DNA of 64,000 nucleotides from a virus. Shown piece after piece: positions 16,204 through 64,000 of the stretch. The stretch covers positions 93,573 to 157,572 of IMG/VR virus record IMGVR_UViG_3300044731_001604; one strand, given 5' to 3'. The translations under genes were made by a program, and so were the position numbers. How positions within the stretch are numbered: the stretch's first letter is position 1; each line of letters opens with the position of its first letter. The notes under the pieces were generated by a model, which was not told the origin of the DNA, made no database searches, and saw only the letters and a list, made by a program, of their open reading frames with translations.

Positions 16204-17595
16204 TTAGAACAAGTTATCAATGATAACGTTCTTACGTGGTTGATATCCAGCTAAAGTCAAGAAACGGAAGTGAGCTTCAGTTTCAGAAAGTTCAGCTTGA
16301 GCAAGTTTCATACGGCTGTATGGGCTAAGCTCATGGAATCCCCATGTATCTTTTTGGATCATGTAACCAGTTACGAAACCTGGAGCTTTGTTTCCAAGGT
16401 CAGTAAATACTTGTGATGCAGAACCATCTGATTTCATTCTTCCGATGAATTTAGCAGTAGCTGCAGAGCTTCCTCTGTAAACGTTGTAATGAGTAGCACC
16501 AGCAACGCCAGCGATAGTCAAGTCAACTCTTTCACCAAGAGTAACAGTTACAGCAGCAGAAGCAGTAGCAACGCCTTCGCCACGTTCATTTTCAGCAGTA
16601 ACTAAATAGATATAGCTTCCTGCAGGGATGATAGCACCAGATCCTGTGTGAGCGCCAGAAACAGTAGCTGGAGCAGCAGGAGATCCGATCATTGGACGTA
16701 ATGGGCTAGTTTTTCCAGACAAGAAACGGCTATCTTCGATAGCAACAGTTCCGTTAGAAACCCATTGTCTACGGAGGTCGGCACCAGAAGCATCTTGTGC
16801 AGAACCAGCAAGCATAATTCTTTGGATGCTGTTAGCACCTGTTCCAAGAGCGATAGCTTTATTGTATCCAGAAAGGATAACAGGGTCAACATAAAGAGTT
16901 TCAGCTTTACCCATGTTCATGCGTGAACGAAGAGCAGCATCTTCAATAATAGGTTGATCTAAAGCACCATTTTTAGAAAGAACTACTGATTGGTTTGATC
17001 CGTAAGAAGCAAACATTAAATCTTGTGTAGAAACAAGAATATCAGACATACGGATGTGAGAATCAACACCCATCATGTTTGGAAGTTCAGGGATAGCATT
17101 TGGATTACCGTCGAAAACACCATTGTTAGAAAAGTGAGCTTTTCCACCGAAAGCGTCGAATTCGATATCAGCAGCAAGTTTGATAGCTGCGTTTTCTGCT
17201 TCTCTATCAGCAGCTTTTTTACCGTCAATAGTTTCCATCATGTTTGCAGCGATAGTTACACGCTCAATACAAGAATAGAAGCACATTGGAACAGTCGCTC
17301 TGATATAATCGCCAACATTAAGATCGCCTACTGCGCCTTCACGTTGAGCAGATCCGCCGAAGCGTCCATAAGAAAGCTGTCTGTTGAATTGAACCAACAA
17401 AGACTTAGCTTTTTTAACTGGGAAGAGCTTTTGTAATTTAATGTGACTATCATCAAATGTCACATTGTGCATTACAGGCTCAAGGTTTTCGATTTGGAGG
17501 GCAGAACCTTGAACAAGTTGCGAAGGAGCAACGTTGTAGTTTCCAGCCTCAAGAGTTTTGACCAGACCCTCTAGAGTCTTAACTAGGTCATTCAT
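16204..17595 (-). CDS. Major capsid protein (SPO1/Twort-like, HK97 fold)
   Basis: 463 aa. N-terminus LVK|TLEAGNYNVAPSQLVQGSALQIENL parallels the Twort-like VVK|SFQTGYGITPDTQ..AGALRRE. Also AADIEFDAFGG and an FN3-like insertion (YIYLVTAENERGEG...YNVYRG). Confidence 0.9.
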   Translation of the reverse strand: MNDLVKTLEGLVKTLEAGNYNVAPSQLVQGSALQIENLEPVMHNVTFDDSHIKLQKLFPVKKAKSLLVQFNRQLSYGRFGGSAQREGAVGDLNVGDYIRATVPMCFYSCIERVTIAANMMETIDGKKAADREAENAAIKLAADIEFDAFGGKAHFSNNGVFDGNPNAIPELPNMMGVDSHIRMSDILVSTQDLMFASYGSNQSVVLSKNGALDQPIIEDAALRSRMNMGKAETLYVDPVILSGYNKAIALGTGANSIQRIMLAGSAQDASGADLRRQWVSNGTVAIEDSRFLSGKTSPLRPMIGSPAAPATVSGAHTGSGAIIPAGSYIYLVTAENERGEGVATASAAVTVTLGERVDLTIAGVAGATHYNVYRGSSAATAKFIGRMKSDGSASQVFTDLGNKAPGFVTGYMIQKDTWGFHELSPYSRMKLAQAELSETEAHFRFLTLAGYQPRKNVIIDNLF

Positions 17596-36173: not shown

Positions 36174-37184
36174 CTACACTCCTTGTTTTAAACTTGGGCA
36201 ATTTTCGTAAATTTTTCTTAATATTTGTTCTTTGTGATTTTGTAACTGGTTCTCTTCAAAGAATCTATTAGAGAACTGACTAAAAGCTTTGCTAATACCA
36301 TCTGATTCTTTAATATCAATAACTTTCATCTCGTCAGTATACTCTGTTTTAATTTTAACTGAATCTGGAAGTGTCTTAGATATTTTTTTAATAAAGTCTC
36401 TTGTACCTTTTAATTCTACGTAAGTTCTGTTTGATGGCGGCACATCTGGTATTTCTTGTCCTTCTTCAATAACAACTTTTGTAAATGGTTCAGATACGCT
36501 TGATGGTGTTGGAAAGAATTTTCTATTCCCAGAGCTGTACAATGCAGTTATTCCTTTGACTTCTCCAATATCAGATCTAGTTAAATGCCTAGTTGTTCCT
36601 ACATAAAGTACTTTGTCAAATTCTTGAGATTTATGTATATGACCAGATATAAATTTGATATCAGTTGGGTACTGTGAAAGATCAAATCCATGAGGTGCAT
36701 AGAAACCATTCTCATACATACAACCTTGAAATTCAGTATGACAAAGGATTGTTTTGATTCCTTTGGAGTATGCCTCTAAAACTTTTTCTTTAAAAACGTC
36801 TTCTTTGCGAATATAACCAATCGCCCCTACTCCGTTTGCTATCTGTATAACGTCTTCTTTAATTATATTTATTTGATCATCGTGGGCTCTCATAGCCGAT
36901 GCTGTTCCATCTTGGTTCATATCGTGATTGCCTTCTAAAGCAAACACTTTTACTGATTTGTTCTGGTTAAACTTATTAAATTGTTTTCGCCAAAAATTCA
37001 TTACCTCTACTCTGGTAACTGCGAAATCGTTATATTGATCTCCCATAAACACAACATGAACTTCAGATTCTTTGCTGAAATCATTGGCAATTCCAATAAT
37101 CCAATCAATAATTTTGGATACTTCTTCAGTGTCCTCTTTTCTTACGTGCATGTCGCCTATAGGCAATATAACATAATTATCCAA
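36174..37184 (-). CDS. SbcD/Mre11/gp47-like metallophosphoesterase nuclease
   Basis: GDMH, GDQYND, GNHD, CH, SGHIH motifs. Confidence 0.85.
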   Translation of the reverse strand: MDNYVILPIGDMHVRKEDTEEVSKIIDWIIGIANDFSKESEVHVVFMGDQYNDFAVTRVEVMNFWRKQFNKFNQNKSVKVFALEGNHDMNQDGTASAMRAHDDQINIIKEDVIQIANGVGAIGYIRKEDVFKEKVLEAYSKGIKTILCHTEFQGCMYENGFYAPHGFDLSQYPTDIKFISGHIHKSQEFDKVLYVGTTRHLTRSDIGEVKGITALYSSGNRKFFPTPSSVSEPFTKVVIEEGQEIPDVPPSNRTYVELKGTRDFIKKISKTLPDSVKIKTEYTDEMKVIDIKESDGISKAFSQFSNRFFEENQLQNHKEQILRKIYENCPSLKQGV

Positions 37185-41854: not shown

Positions 41855-43636
41855 ATGTCTTTATTTCAAGCATCAAAACCAAAATCGGCAGGAAAAGTTA
41901 CGGTTCCATCCTCAAATCAATTATCTGAGGTAGTGTGTAAAACTCTTAATCATATGGCACAAATGGCAGGAGCAACTCTTGGTCCCGGCGGTAAACAAGT
42001 TTTGATTGAACGCGGTGAAATTGGCATGAAACCAATCTTAACAAAAGATGGTGTGTCTGTTATTAAATCCCTAGGGTATGATGGCGCGACTCAGCAATTA
42101 ATCCTTGAGGCTGCTAGAGATGCTGCAATCAGAACTGCTACAGAGGCAGGAGATGGTACGACTACTGCTACTGTACTTTCTGCTGCAATTACAAATGCTA
42201 CTGCCCATGTTGTTGCTAATAACCCAAAAGTGTCCCCACAAAAAATAGTACGCGAATTACAAAAAATCGTCCCTGTGCTGATCAAGATGATTAGCGATCT
42301 TAAGATTGACGTTACTGGAGAGAATTACCAAGAAGTTCTGTTAAAAGTTGCCACTTTGTCGGCTAATGGTGATACTGAGTTATCTTCAAAAGTACTTGAA
42401 GGTTTAGATTTAGTTGGAGATGAAGGCGACCTCACAATAGTTGAAGGTACTGGAGAGAGCAGATACTCTATCAATAGAATTAACGGTTACACAGTAGATA
42501 GAGGTCTTGAGGAATCTTGCAGAAATCTAGCTCAGGGTTTTATTAATGACAAATCTGGAACAATGGTAGTACTGGATAATCCGATCTTTATCCTCTATGA
42601 TGGTGTTATTAATGATTTTGGTCAAATTTTTGATGGACTTAGTAAATTAAATGCTACTTTGGAAGCTTCTGGTCGTCCAGATAGAAATGTAGTAGTAGTT
42701 GCTCATGGATTCGGCGAAATGGTATTAGGAGACCTTCACCATAACTGGAATCACCCGAAAGCTCCTCTTAAAGTTTACCCAATGCTAACTCCTGAAAAAG
42801 CAATTGCTAATTGGAGAACACAATTTCTTTATGATTTACAGGCATACACAGGTGCAACTGTGTTCAATCCAGTTGATAGACCTGTAATAGATATTATACC
42901 AGAATCAGTTATTGAATCTAATAGAGCAACTCGCGTAGAAATATCTAGATTCAAATCAATGGTTTTTGCAAAAGAAGATGTTGATGCTGTAAGCATTCGC
43001 GTTGATGAGCTTAAATTTCAAAAAAATGCTCCAGAAAGCGAATATGAGCTTAATGACTTAAATGTTAGAATCGGTAAGTTAACATCTGGAATTGTTAGAC
43101 TTGAAATATTTGGCCCTAGCTCTGGCGAAACTAGAGAGAAACGTGATAGAGCTGAAGATGCTTGGATGGCATTAAAAGGCGCTACTAAATATGGAGCAGT
43201 TCCTGGTGGAGGGTATGTACTTGTAAGACTGGCTGCTGCATTACAATTACAAGTAGATAAAATTCCACCGTCTGCTAAAAAATATGCTTATCAAATTCTT
43301 GCAGAAGCTTTATTAGAGCCAGTTAAATTATTATATAAAAATTATGGTTTTAATGATGAAGAAACTACTGAGCAAATATTTAAAATGTTAAATAATGACG
43401 ATCAAGCATACGACATTTTAGAAGAAATGTGGGTTCCAAAAGAACAATTATTAGATAGCGTTCCTGCTGTTAGCGAAGCGATCAGAAATAGTATTTCAAT
43501 TGCTTCATTGCTCGGTACGTTAGGTGGCATAGTTGCATTTAAACGCGATTATGATTCTGATAAAGAAGAAGAAAGACTTATTCGCAATTTTGAAGCCTCT
43601 ATTGGCGAACGTGGTTCTTTAGCTCAAGGAGAATAA
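41855..43636 (+). CDS. groEL: GroEL/Cpn60-like chaperonin
   Basis: TLGPGG, TKDGVSV, AGDGTTTATVL, SANGD, EKRDRAEDA, GAVPGGG; no GGM tail. Confidence 0.92.
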   Translation: MSLFQASKPKSAGKVTVPSSNQLSEVVCKTLNHMAQMAGATLGPGGKQVLIERGEIGMKPILTKDGVSVIKSLGYDGATQQLILEAARDAAIRTATEAGDGTTTATVLSAAITNATAHVVANNPKVSPQKIVRELQKIVPVLIKMISDLKIDVTGENYQEVLLKVATLSANGDTELSSKVLEGLDLVGDEGDLTIVEGTGESRYSINRINGYTVDRGLEESCRNLAQGFINDKSGTMVVLDNPIFILYDGVINDFGQIFDGLSKLNATLEASGRPDRNVVVVAHGFGEMVLGDLHHNWNHPKAPLKVYPMLTPEKAIANWRTQFLYDLQAYTGATVFNPVDRPVIDIIPESVIESNRATRVEISRFKSMVFAKEDVDAVSIRVDELKFQKNAPESEYELNDLNVRIGKLTSGIVRLEIFGPSSGETREKRDRAEDAWMALKGATKYGAVPGGGYVLVRLAAALQLQVDKIPPSAKKYAYQILAEALLEPVKLLYKNYGFNDEETTEQIFKMLNNDDQAYDILEEMWVPKEQLLDSVPAVSEAIRNSISIASLLGTLGGIVAFKRDYDSDKEEERLIRNFEASIGERGSLAQGE

Positions 43637-43637
43637 A

Positions 43638-43913
43638 ATGCCTTGGTTTACTTACAAATGCAAAGAACATGGAGAGTTCAAGGCATCACTATCTAAAAGA
43701 GAGCAGACTCAAAAATGTCCAGAATGTGATAACACTTGTTATTCTGTGATAAAGTCTGCTTCTATATCTATAGTTGAAAGATTAGATAATGGGGCAATGG
43801 CAAGAACAGTTGAAAGATTACACAACATTGAAGATATTATGAACGAAAGAGCTGATAAACATAGTGCAGAGAATAGTAGCCCAATAGAGGAGTTGGAAAA
43901 TGAGCAAAATTGA
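43638..43913 (+). CDS. FmdB-like zinc-ribbon protein
   Basis: MPWFTYKCKEHG...CPEC. Confidence 0.7.
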   Translation: MPWFTYKCKEHGEFKASLSKREQTQKCPECDNTCYSVIKSASISIVERLDNGAMARTVERLHNIEDIMNERADKHSAENSSPIEELENEQN

Positions 43914-44925
43914 TGTTGGTTTTGGCATACCGCTTTATATGCAACCATATTGGGATGAATCCGGAGAATATTTTCCTCACGCACTAGATAGCGTATTTAT
44001 CAATGAAGAGCTTAGCTATACTCATGGAGACATTGACGTATCTTTAGAGAATATAATTAGAATAACACACGAAATGGTCGGTAATGCTGTCACAGAAGGT
44101 TCTACTATAGTGGTAGGAAATGGCGCATCTCAAGTAATTTCTTCCGTAGGGTACGCTTCTAAAGCTTTGGGATATGATGATTTCAGCTTAAACGCACCGT
44201 TCTGGGGTAGATTAGAGTTTCTATTGACAGTTGGCCAAAAGGCGTATGATTTTACAAATGCTAAACCAAGAAAAACTCCTAAAAAACCAATATTTGATTT
44301 TGTAACTAGACCAAATAATCCGGATTCAAGTATGAGAGGGGCGGATGAATCCTTCTCGGTTGTTGACATGTGCTATAATTGGCCTCAGTACGTCCCTCAA
44401 GTAGAAAAAGGCGATTATGATGTTATGATTTTTAGCCTAGCGAAGGCTACAGGACATGCTGGAACAAGAATTGGCTGGGCAGTTGTAAAAGATCCAGAAG
44501 TTGCAGCAATAATGAAAGATTATATGGAGCTATCAACATGTGGAGTGTCGGTAGATTCTCAAAGAAAAGCTGATGGAGTCTTCACAAGAATCCTGTCTTT
44601 ATCAAGATTCTTTAAATCTCCGTTTGATTACGCAAAAGAAGAGCTATCATTAAGATGGGAAGTATTTAAAAATGGCGTAAAAGACAATACTGACTTTAAA
44701 CTACTAAATCAACATGGTATGTTTGCATTTTGTGAATTGTCATCTAATGATGAGCCTGTTGGTTTTATGGACAACAAATATGACTTAATAGTTACCCCAG
44801 GAAGAAATCTAGGATTGACAAGCGATTCAAATTGCTTTAGAATAAATCTTGGATGTTCTGAAGAGAACTTTACCAAAATGATGGGGTCTTTACGTGCAAA
44901 TAAACCTAGTATCACTGGAAATTGA
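43900..44925 (+). CDS. PLP-dependent enzyme of the alliinase/TAA1 (tryptophan aminotransferase) family
   Basis: [71 protein letters not shown]. Confidence 0.85.
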   Translation: [341 protein letters not shown]

Positions 44926-46603
44926 AGGATTTAGAAGTTTTAGGCAATATACAAAGATTGATTTTCCTAAAAACGATTCCTTAGTACTTATTTCAGGTAA
45001 ATGGAAGGATACTGATGTTTCTTCCGGATCTGGAAAGTCTTCTATATTAGAAGCCATTGCATTCTGTCTTGATATTTCAACAGCAAGTGCTACCTCATTA
45101 AAAAATTGGGATTCTAAAAAGATGCTAGTCAAACTCACCTTGTCAAAAGGTGATGATATTATACAAATAACTAGAGATCCAAAGCTTTCTATATCTGTCA
45201 ATGGTGTTCCTTATGAAGGACTTGTAAAAGGCTCTAAGGAAAGATTGCAAGAACTATTAGGTGTTAATCCAGATATGCTTAAAACAATGACGTATAGAAA
45301 ACAACGAGTTGCAGGAAAAATAATAAGATCAACAGATTCACAAATAAAAGAGTTTTTAACCCAAACCCTTGGTTTAGATGAAATAGAAAATTTTATAGAA
45401 GAAAATTCAAAGCTGATTAATACTACCTCTAGATCTTTAGATATCATAAGAGCAAATTATGAGTCTGCAACAAAAAATTTATCAAGCAGCAATATATCAG
45501 ATGAAGAAATTCAATCATTGAAAAACGGCGTTATTGAAGCCGAAAGTACTTTTGAAAAATATAAAGATGACACTGCTAACAAAAATTTAACTACGGAAAT
45601 CAATAATTTAACAATTGAATATAAGAAAAGTATTGAAATAAAAAACAATGTTGAAAAAGCAAAATATTCTAATGATAATATTAAAAAAACAATTATTAAT
45701 TTAATAAATGAAATAGAACACCTTTCAAAATCATCTTGCCCAACATGCCTTAGAGATTGGCAAGAATCCAAGCAATTGTTAGATATTAAAACAAAAGAAA
45801 AAGATGCTTTAATTTTAAAATTTCAAGATAATTTATCATATATCAAAGATTCAGAATCTGTAATTTCTAATTATTCCAAATTGGAATATAAAATAAATGA
45901 GTTAAATAAACAACTTGCGATGATATCAGCTCCAAAAAACATGGCGTACCAATCATTACTCAATGCTAAGTCAGCTTTATCTATGGGAATGTCAAAAAGA
46001 AACTCATATATAGAACTAACAAATAGAGTTTCAGAATTATTTAACGAAGGCAGAATCAAGCAGCAAGAGTTAGAAGTGTTAGAATCAACTAACAAGCTTC
46101 TTGGCAGAACTGGATTTTTAGGCAATATTTTTGATGAAATTTTAGCCGACATTCAAATAAGAACAAATGATATGCTTTCAAATTTTCCAAATGCAAGTCA
46201 ATTTACGGTACAAATAAGCTCTACCAAAGAAGTTAAATCAAAGGGCACCACAAAAAAAGAAATATCTATTACCATAAATAACAATGGTAACGAAATCGGA
46301 ATAGATGACTTGTCAGGTGGTCAACAATCTGCTATAGAACTCTGCTCTGATTTAGCAGCCGCTGAGGTTATAAGAGCAAGATCTGGGTGCGGTTTAGGTT
46401 GGATATGCCTAGACGAAGTTATGGACGGCTTAGGCGCTGTTGAAAAAGAGGCTGCTGTAAATATGATAAGACAGCGAGTTAAGGGCCTAGTATTAATGAT
46501 TGAGCATTCAACTGAGATTAAAGAATCGTTTAATGAAGTAATAGAAATAGAGTTTTCCGGCAAAGAAAGCCGTTTAACTATAACAAATAATGTGGTATAT
46601 TAG
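44894..46603 (+). CDS. SbcC/Rad50/gp46-like ABC ATPase
   Basis: GSGKSS Walker A, CPTC zinc hook, LSGGQ signature, LDEVMDGL, IEH. Confidence 0.9.
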   Translation: MQINLVSLEIEGFRSFRQYTKIDFPKNDSLVLISGKWKDTDVSSGSGKSSILEAIAFCLDISTASATSLKNWDSKKMLVKLTLSKGDDIIQITRDPKLSISVNGVPYEGLVKGSKERLQELLGVNPDMLKTMTYRKQRVAGKIIRSTDSQIKEFLTQTLGLDEIENFIEENSKLINTTSRSLDIIRANYESATKNLSSSNISDEEIQSLKNGVIEAESTFEKYKDDTANKNLTTEINNLTIEYKKSIEIKNNVEKAKYSNDNIKKTIINLINEIEHLSKSSCPTCLRDWQESKQLLDIKTKEKDALILKFQDNLSYIKDSESVISNYSKLEYKINELNKQLAMISAPKNMAYQSLLNAKSALSMGMSKRNSYIELTNRVSELFNEGRIKQQELEVLESTNKLLGRTGFLGNIFDEILADIQIRTNDMLSNFPNASQFTVQISSTKEVKSKGTTKKEISITINNNGNEIGIDDLSGGQQSAIELCSDLAAAEVIRARSGCGLGWICLDEVMDGLGAVEKEAAVNMIRQRVKGLVLMIEHSTEIKESFNEVIEIEFSGKESRLTITNNVVY

Positions 46604-63541: not shown

Positions 63542-64000
63542 ATGTTTGCTAATAAAATTACTTACTGTCTAAATTCAGCCGCTGTGGGAGATCTAGTTGC
63601 AGCGGCACCTTCCCTCAAGTGGGCAATCGAAAATTTCCACCACAAAACAGATTATCAAGTTGGAATGTACAAAGATTTTAAAGATCTGTTTCCTTTTGTT
63701 CCGGAAGAAAAAATAGTGGACATCCAAGGAAGTTATTCAAACGAATTCTCGGTTAGGCATCTTAATATGCTTGGAGTCGGTGGCAATGTTTGCAAATTAA
63801 CTCCGTCACGCATGAAATTAACTCAATATGGAAGTATTGGATTATTAGGTAGAGTATTACCAGACCATTTAACAAAATATGTCCCACTTCAAGAAGTTGA
63901 TGTTAGTCATTATGGTGTTGATTTTTCAAAAGCCGTTGTGATTATATCTACCTATAGAGATCCACAAAGAACAATAATTGCAAGTGAAATTAAAAAAATA
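63542..64000 (+). CDS. Partial glycosyltransferase, GT9 (heptosyltransferase)-like
   Basis: Not in the ORF track (open to the window end): MFANKITYCLNSAAVGDLVAAAPSLKWAI..., matching the GT9 N-terminal xxGDxxxxxP motif. Confidence 0.55.
   Translation, partial: MFANKITYCLNSAAVGDLVAAAPSLKWAIENFHHKTDYQVGMYKDFKDLFPFVPEEKIVDIQGSYSNEFSVRHLNMLGVGGNVCKLTPSRMKLTQYGSIGLLGRVLPDHLTKYVPLQEVDVSHYGVDFSKAVVIISTYRDPQRTIIASEIKKI

Follow-up and report, generated by a model that had tools for sequence, protein, structure and literature searches.

A freshwater phage encodes an intact, optional enzyme of the TAA/alliinase family that belongs to a large, mostly phage-borne branch

An uncultured freshwater (lake water) phage carries a gene for a genuine PLP enzyme of the TAA/alliinase family, in which the TAA1 family enzyme carries out the first step of auxin synthesis in plants and alliinase makes allicin in garlic. 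The gene lies in what we call the window, a stretch of 64,000 nucleotides that forms the final 64 kb of one IMG/VR record (157,572 bp; CheckV completeness 98%). Its product, P0001 (341 aa), is not HisC, AspC or CobD; it belongs to a large, mostly phage-borne TAA/alliinase branch and is a new variant within a known enzyme family. With moderate confidence, and judging from sequence, we read P0001 as an intact, optional phage TAA-family enzyme that would most likely act as a stand-alone transaminase of a bulky L-amino acid.

The P0001 gene (43900..44925, + strand) starts with an ATG, and direct reading of the sequence places a GAGGAG Shine-Dalgarno element 7 nt upstream of this codon (43887..43892, +). 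It is part of a rightward operon whose first gene encodes a GroEL-like chaperonin (41855..43636, +; phrog_5725, E 1e-78; Cpn60_TCP1). The enzyme gene is flanked upstream by the gene for a 91-aa FmdB-type Zn-ribbon protein (43638..43913, +; Pfam Zn_ribbon_8, TIGR02605) and downstream by that for an SbcC/Rad50-like ATPase (44894..46603, +; phrog_77, E 2e-44; AAA_23, SMC_N). The enzyme ORF shares its first 14 nt with the end of the Zn-ribbon ORF and its last 32 nt with the start of the SbcC ORF, just as the original prediction of a gene overlapping both of its neighbors in a groEL-sbcC operon had stated. An SbcD/Mre11-type metallophosphoesterase is encoded apart from sbcC (36174..37184, - strand; PF00149, 32 bits, above the cut-off). 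Since an SbcD-type gene is thus present elsewhere, we rejected the idea that the enzyme gene serves as an SbcD stand-in beside sbcC.

The genome encodes a major head protein, portal, terminase, DnaE-type polymerase, DnaB, primase and RuvC, together with a RecA/UvsX-like recombinase, SbcC, the SbcD-type phosphoesterase, a sigma factor and GroEL. Judged by DnaE, the closest cultured phage is Myxococcus phage Mx1, at only 33%. The genome start has a subtilase and a heptosyltransferase-like fragment, an RNase_T-type exonuclease comes after a PIN-PhoH fusion protein (L002:2699-3973), and the C-terminal third of the major head protein ORF (window 16204-17595, -) also matches an esterase/lipase family (phrog_19622). 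The final 50 bases of the window (63951-64000) recur at genome positions 145-194 (L002), which may reflect a short terminal repeat or an assembly overlap in a circularly permuted genome. At 37.2%, the GC content of the enzyme gene is native to the genome (35.7%), as is its codon usage, with a cosine of 0.93 that is also the value for sbcC. The stretch was almost complete in many lake-water metagenome runs, and no RNA run was among the matches listed.

In Pfam, Alliinase_C (PF04864) matched residues 4-278 of P0001 at 160 bits (E 9.8e-47; cut-off 22), compared to only 46 bits for the generic Aminotran_1_2 profile. The original prediction had named this comparison as a check, and the family call was upheld by it. 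No NCBIfam model came near its cut-off (hisC, 22.9 bits versus a cut-off of 276), and the outcome that would have spoken against the call, a best profile hit to HisC, AspC or CobD, did not occur. The EGF-like alliinase domain (PF04863) was not found in P0001 with Pfam, the protein being a short form that starts at the catalytic domain, without an N-terminal extension. When all PDB sequences were searched with phmmer, the best match was Arabidopsis TAA1 (3bwn; E 4e-35, 125 bits) and the second was garlic alliinase (2hor; E 4e-24, 88 bits). The nearest named proteins in curated databases were likewise plant TAR and TAA1; a named plant TAA1 was 31% identical across 363 aligned columns (E 4e-48). 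Folding P0001 with AlphaFold2 on the basis of 93 homologs gave a confident model (pLDDT 94.7, pTM 0.92), and its top Foldseek match was again TAA1 (TM 0.84, E 2e-26), followed by alliinase (5e-24), with other aminotransferases at ~1e-15. The original prediction had likened P0001 to TAA1 motif by motif, and the four TAA1 strings quoted for this purpose were all recovered in the phmmer alignment to 3bwn. The PLP lysine was also retained as claimed: K182 (codon 44443..44445, +), the predicted Schiff-base lysine, aligned with TAA1 K217 and alliinase K251.

Across the 93 homologs, G75, P138, N140, P141, D156, Y159, W161, K182, G192, R252, G273 and R314 were invariant, and G9, Y40 and R190 were at least 90% conserved. 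The alliinase active site, which we take to comprise G64, Y92, Y165, N207, D225, Y228, K251, R259 and R401, was compared with P0001 through the phmmer alignment. In P0001, G9, Y40, N140, D156, Y159, K182, R190 and R314 match alliinase G64, Y92, N207, D225, Y228, K251, R259 and R401, respectively, with W102 standing where alliinase has the ring-stacking Y165. The roles of these residues were assumed to be those in published structures of TAA1, alliinase and AspAT. P0001 thus has the complete predicted apparatus with which a dimeric fold-type-I enzyme binds PLP and grips a free L-amino acid by its alpha-carboxylate. The enzyme would be a homodimer in which K182 carries PLP as an internal aldimine, the cofactor is anchored by D156, Y159, N140 and R190, W102 stacks on the PLP ring, and Y40 is contributed by the partner subunit. 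The alpha-carboxylate of a free L-amino acid would be bound by R314 and the G9 loop.

In every comparison TAA1 came closest to P0001, and for this reason we favor a TAA1-like transamination, in which a bulky (aromatic or sulfur-containing) L-amino acid would react with pyruvate or 2-oxoglutarate to give a 2-oxo acid. Amino-acid transamination is the most likely activity of P0001, and beta-lyase activity is less likely; sequence alone does not separate transamination from beta-elimination in the TAA/alliinase family. Nor can Trp specificity be transferred to P0001, because it lies outside the plant TAA clade (see below). We propose that P0001 would work alone on the host metabolite pool, from the early to the middle phase of infection, as an accessory that pays off under some conditions only. 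The phage genome had no match to Pyr_redox_3 (YUCCA-type FMO), TPP_enzyme_N (IPDC-type decarboxylase) or Aldedh. Lacking an FMO, a TPP decarboxylase and an aldehyde dehydrogenase, the phage has no auxin pathway of its own; a phage-encoded pathway of this kind was therefore rejected, and P0001 would be expected to play no role in one.

An exhaustive HMMER search against 1.84 billion representatives returned 794 relatives of P0001 at E <=1e-3 and 100 at E <=1e-30. The top matches were mostly full-length (300-360 aa), and short relatives in this size range formed at least 100 clusters at 50% identity; the longer matches that were looked up by name came from eukaryotes, namely plants, green algae, Euglena, an amoebozoan and MMETSP protists. 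At least 33 viral contigs in IMG/VR carried the enzyme gene, and the ESM Atlas clusters nearest to P0001 were 83-96% Viruses (Uroviricota), beside Streptophyta. The original prediction had described the family as mainly eukaryotic, which is true of curated databases only, since metagenomes hold a large, mostly viral branch. Cultured phages in INPHARED gave no DNA or tblastn match, though records close to the window's own genome may be missing from the set searched; PHROGs contained no family for P0001, and a search of the literature on phage alliinase, phage TAA and auxin-related auxiliary metabolic genes (AMGs) found nothing relevant. Among 185,579 prokaryote species genomes (one each), there were two real matches, both on short MAG contigs. 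Close cellular homologs that might have acted as the source of an AMG were accordingly lacking, going by these two matches and the viral share of the nearest Atlas clusters. The suggestion of an unusual AMG survives in part: the gene is dispensable and patchy, but with the family all but missing from candidate hosts it does not count as a classical, host-derived AMG. A simple metabolic booster would not usually be so nearly absent from cellular prokaryotes, which speaks against the transaminase reading and hints at a substrate particular to phages.

The enzyme gene occurs in at least three phage lineages. In lineage A, to which the window belongs and which consists of freshwater phages of roughly 140-160 kb, the gene order is sigma factor, helicase, GroEL, Zn-ribbon, enzyme and SbcC, followed by RuvC and DnaE, so that the enzyme slot lies inside a replication/recombination operon running from GroEL to DnaE. 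Eleven lineage-A genomes retain this slot between the Zn-ribbon and sbcC genes, including those in which identity to the window's protein has dropped to 27-30% for the enzyme while GroEL stays at 53-70%. In lineage B, the order is RNR, small ORFs, enzyme, an M78-like gene, a PD-(D/E)XK nuclease, an AAA protein and a primase-helicase; in lineage C, the enzyme gene stands beside an M15 peptidase, terminase and P22-type portal. A small partner common to all contexts was considered and rejected, since the upstream small ORFs differ between lineages and, in lineage A, the Zn-ribbon gene persists at loci that have lost or never had the enzyme gene. One lineage-A phage has an 89-aa hydrophobic, membrane-like ORF between the Zn-ribbon and enzyme genes (L049:7735-8004). 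In part of lineage C, the enzyme gene is immediately preceded, with overlap, by a different small Zn-ribbon ORF of the CxxC...CPxC type (L019:6993-7202), which shows no obvious homology to the protein of lineage A. A strongly conserved motif (ERLDNGAM.R.VERLHNIEEIM) marks the C terminus of the 91-aa Zn-ribbon protein, whose gene in lineage A invariably sits between those for GroEL and SbcC (or the enzyme); the protein may go with GroEL or SbcC rather than with the enzyme.

A scan with the Zn-ribbon protein, which is conserved in lineage-A loci with or without the enzyme gene, turned up 20 such loci. The enzyme gene was present in 7; the other 13 had no enzyme gene between Zn-ribbon and sbcC. 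A search of the whole records of five enzyme-less phages, three of them 96-99% complete, found no copy anywhere, while the same search detected one copy in each of five known carriers used as a positive control (5/5). In the GroEL tree, one deep subclade lacks the enzyme gene and the other mixes 9 carriers with 7 non-carriers, a pattern that needs at least 4-5 gains or losses. When four complete carriers were compared with three complete non-carriers across 740 gene families, the enzyme alone separated the two groups, from which we conclude that no dedicated partner is needed and that the phage can replicate without the enzyme. A 546-aa protein annotated as a 'DNA transfer protein' (phrog_1745; T5 A1-like, with a metallophosphoesterase-like part; L002:4817-6454, genome 4817-6457) and an adjacent 69-aa ORF were each present in 3/4 carriers and 0/3 non-carriers; the 546-aa protein was dropped as a candidate partner, this partial co-variation being judged too weak. 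With 13 of 20 loci and three near-complete sister genomes lacking the gene and nothing co-varying with it, the enzyme gene is a stand-alone, repeatedly lost accessory gene. Even so, purifying selection on the homologs of related phages is strong (dN/dS ~0.1), with unsaturated pairs giving 0.08 at dS 1.16 and 0.105 at dS 0.17.

We then placed P0001 in a tree of 62 sequences (IQ-TREE, LG+C20+F+G4 with PMSF) rooted on three ordinary bacterial aminotransferases. A branch of ~5 substitutions per site (100/100) splits this outgroup from the phage-type and eukaryote sequences, so that the predicted grouping with TAA/alliinases, away from ordinary aminotransferases, was recovered, whereas a place within the plant TAA/TAR clade was not. 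The eukaryote TAA/alliinases form one clade (97/92) that excludes P0001, and P0001 groups with lineage-A phages (100/99); it is not a plant-derived protein. Sister to the eukaryote clade (96/93) are two bacterial-type copies, one (L040) from a Bdellovibrionales MAG and one (P0065) on a 318-kb contig among GGDEF, PfkB, RlmN and GDH genes; bacterial copies are very sparse. Both of these chromosomal copies have a gene for a GGDEF diguanylate cyclase nearby, in L040 as the immediate neighbor (L040:4-1293), and this proximity suggests related, Bdellovibrionales-type bacterial hosts. In the site-heterogeneous tree, the eukaryotes and these two copies fall inside a polytomy of phage-type sequences, and three lineage-A phage sequences (P0116, P0149 and P0162) are closer to the outgroup (93/91); a tree with all phage-type sequences monophyletic was not rejected by the AU test under LG+G4 (p 0.86).

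Together with its rare bacterial copies, the phage-borne branch is the closest known non-eukaryotic relative of TAA/alliinase. That the gene may bear on the origin of TAA holds in this respect; the eukaryotes may be either nested in or sister to the phage-type sequences, and any transfer may have run in either direction. We put forward only tentatively the possibility that the eukaryote TAA/alliinase family descends from a phage-borne pool, perhaps via rare Bdellovibrionales-type chromosomal copies. The origin of TAA has been disputed between horizontal transfer and vertical descent from algae (PMC4754409, PMC5611494), and the prokaryote homologs that figured in this debate are ~25% identical (E ~1e-8; PMC4754409). 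Being much closer than these (31%, E ~1e-48), the phage branch offers studies of plant evolution a better outgroup and a candidate donor pool for TAA.

Several other explanations for P0001 were weighed against transamination. The enzyme might be a C-S/beta-lyase (alliinase- or MalY/PatB-like) that turns a cysteine derivative (sulfoxide, cystine, cystathionine or cysteine) into pyruvate, ammonia and a reactive sulfur species, which could serve sulfur supply or provide a toxic or protective sulfur compound. Garlic alliinase is indeed the second solved match by both sequence (E 4e-24) and fold (E 5e-24), and the positions that we take to be the alliinase active site all have conserved counterparts in P0001. 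Moreover, the ancestral specificity of the eukaryote family is regarded as unknown (PMC10015382). However, TAA1 outscores alliinase in each comparison (125 versus 88 bits; Foldseek 2e-26 versus 5e-24), the EGF-like alliinase domain is absent, and no sulfur-handling partner gene co-varies with the enzyme, so that we regard a lyase as rather unlikely. The setting in replication/nucleotide-metabolism modules in lineages A and B (RNR, PD-(D/E)XK nuclease, primase-helicase) and the almost phage-exclusive distribution of the family would instead suit an enzyme that tailors an amino-acid moiety on a nucleotide or on phage DNA, a hypermodification directed against host nucleases. Such a role is weakened by the failure to find a thymidylate-synthase/hydroxymethylase (ThyA-family) homolog in the genome, on which ground the 5-hydroxymethyl-pyrimidine route was rejected, and by the lack of any co-varying kinase, transferase or other gene, while known pathways need several enzymes. 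In addition, the invariant alpha-carboxylate arginine suits a free amino acid, the lineage-C gene lies beside M15 peptidase, terminase and portal, and close sister phages replicate without the enzyme gene; taken together, this makes hypermodification a distinctly improbable function.

In every lineage-A carrier the enzyme gene tightly overlaps sbcC and the Zn-ribbon gene, which might also be expected if P0001 were a catalytically dead pseudo-enzyme that supports or regulates SbcC or the Zn-ribbon protein as a partner. We consider this very unlikely, given that the catalytic residues are all invariant in the 93 homologs, that Zn-ribbon and SbcC are adjacent and intact in the 13 enzyme-less loci, that lineages B and C carry the gene without an adjoining SbcC, and that SbcD is encoded elsewhere. 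Plant TAR and TAA1, as the nearest named curated proteins, might suggest that the gene was recently captured from a plant or alga, or that the assembly is contaminated or chimeric with eukaryotic DNA, but the probability of this is negligible. P0001 is excluded from the eukaryote clade (97/92), the metagenomic homologs nearest to it, among them those in syntenic phage contigs, are 42-50% identical, compared to 31% for plants, its reading frame overlaps phage genes, and the stretch is present in many lake-water runs. Native GC content and codon usage, synteny in related phages and this recurrence establish that the enzyme gene is phage-encoded; contamination or recent eukaryote capture is excluded, and contamination had already seemed unlikely to the original prediction from the gene overlaps.

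Having weighed these alternatives, we retain the stand-alone transaminase of a bulky L-amino acid as the most likely reading. A gene that is kept under strong selection, repeatedly lost and without a partner points to an undescribed, conditionally useful reaction in the infection of freshwater bacteria. For phage biology, a PLP family whose diversity is found nearly exclusively in phages departs from the usual picture of host-derived AMGs. Because the phage-branch enzymes are small and confidently modeled, their expression and screening should be easy.

Compared with known systems, prokaryote class I/II aminotransferases (HisC, AspC, kynurenine aminotransferases and YbdL) share fold-type I and the catalytic Lys/Asp/Asn/Tyr/Arg set with P0001 but are far more distant (Foldseek E ~1e-15 versus ~1e-26 for TAA1). 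Garlic and onion alliinase (1lk9, 2hor) and plant TAR3/TAR4 have in common with P0001 the Alliinase_C catalytic domain and the residues of the PLP and carboxylate sites; P0001 differs from them in having no PF04863 EGF-like domain, and its similarity to them is lower than to TAA1. With Arabidopsis TAA1/TAR1/TAR2 (3bwn, 3bwo), P0001 shares the Pfam family, the fold, the short EGF-less architecture and the motifs G-[DN]-P..YW, PNNPD, D..Y.WP.Y and SK.TGHAG.RIGW, although it is ~50 aa shorter and, unlike these proteins, is phage-encoded, has no YUCCA partner and lies outside the eukaryote clade. Like phage AMGs, the enzyme gene is of a metabolic type, dispensable, patchy among relatives and under purifying selection. 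Classical AMGs, however, are recent copies of host genes, whereas this enzyme family is nearly absent from cellular prokaryotes and has its diversity in phages.
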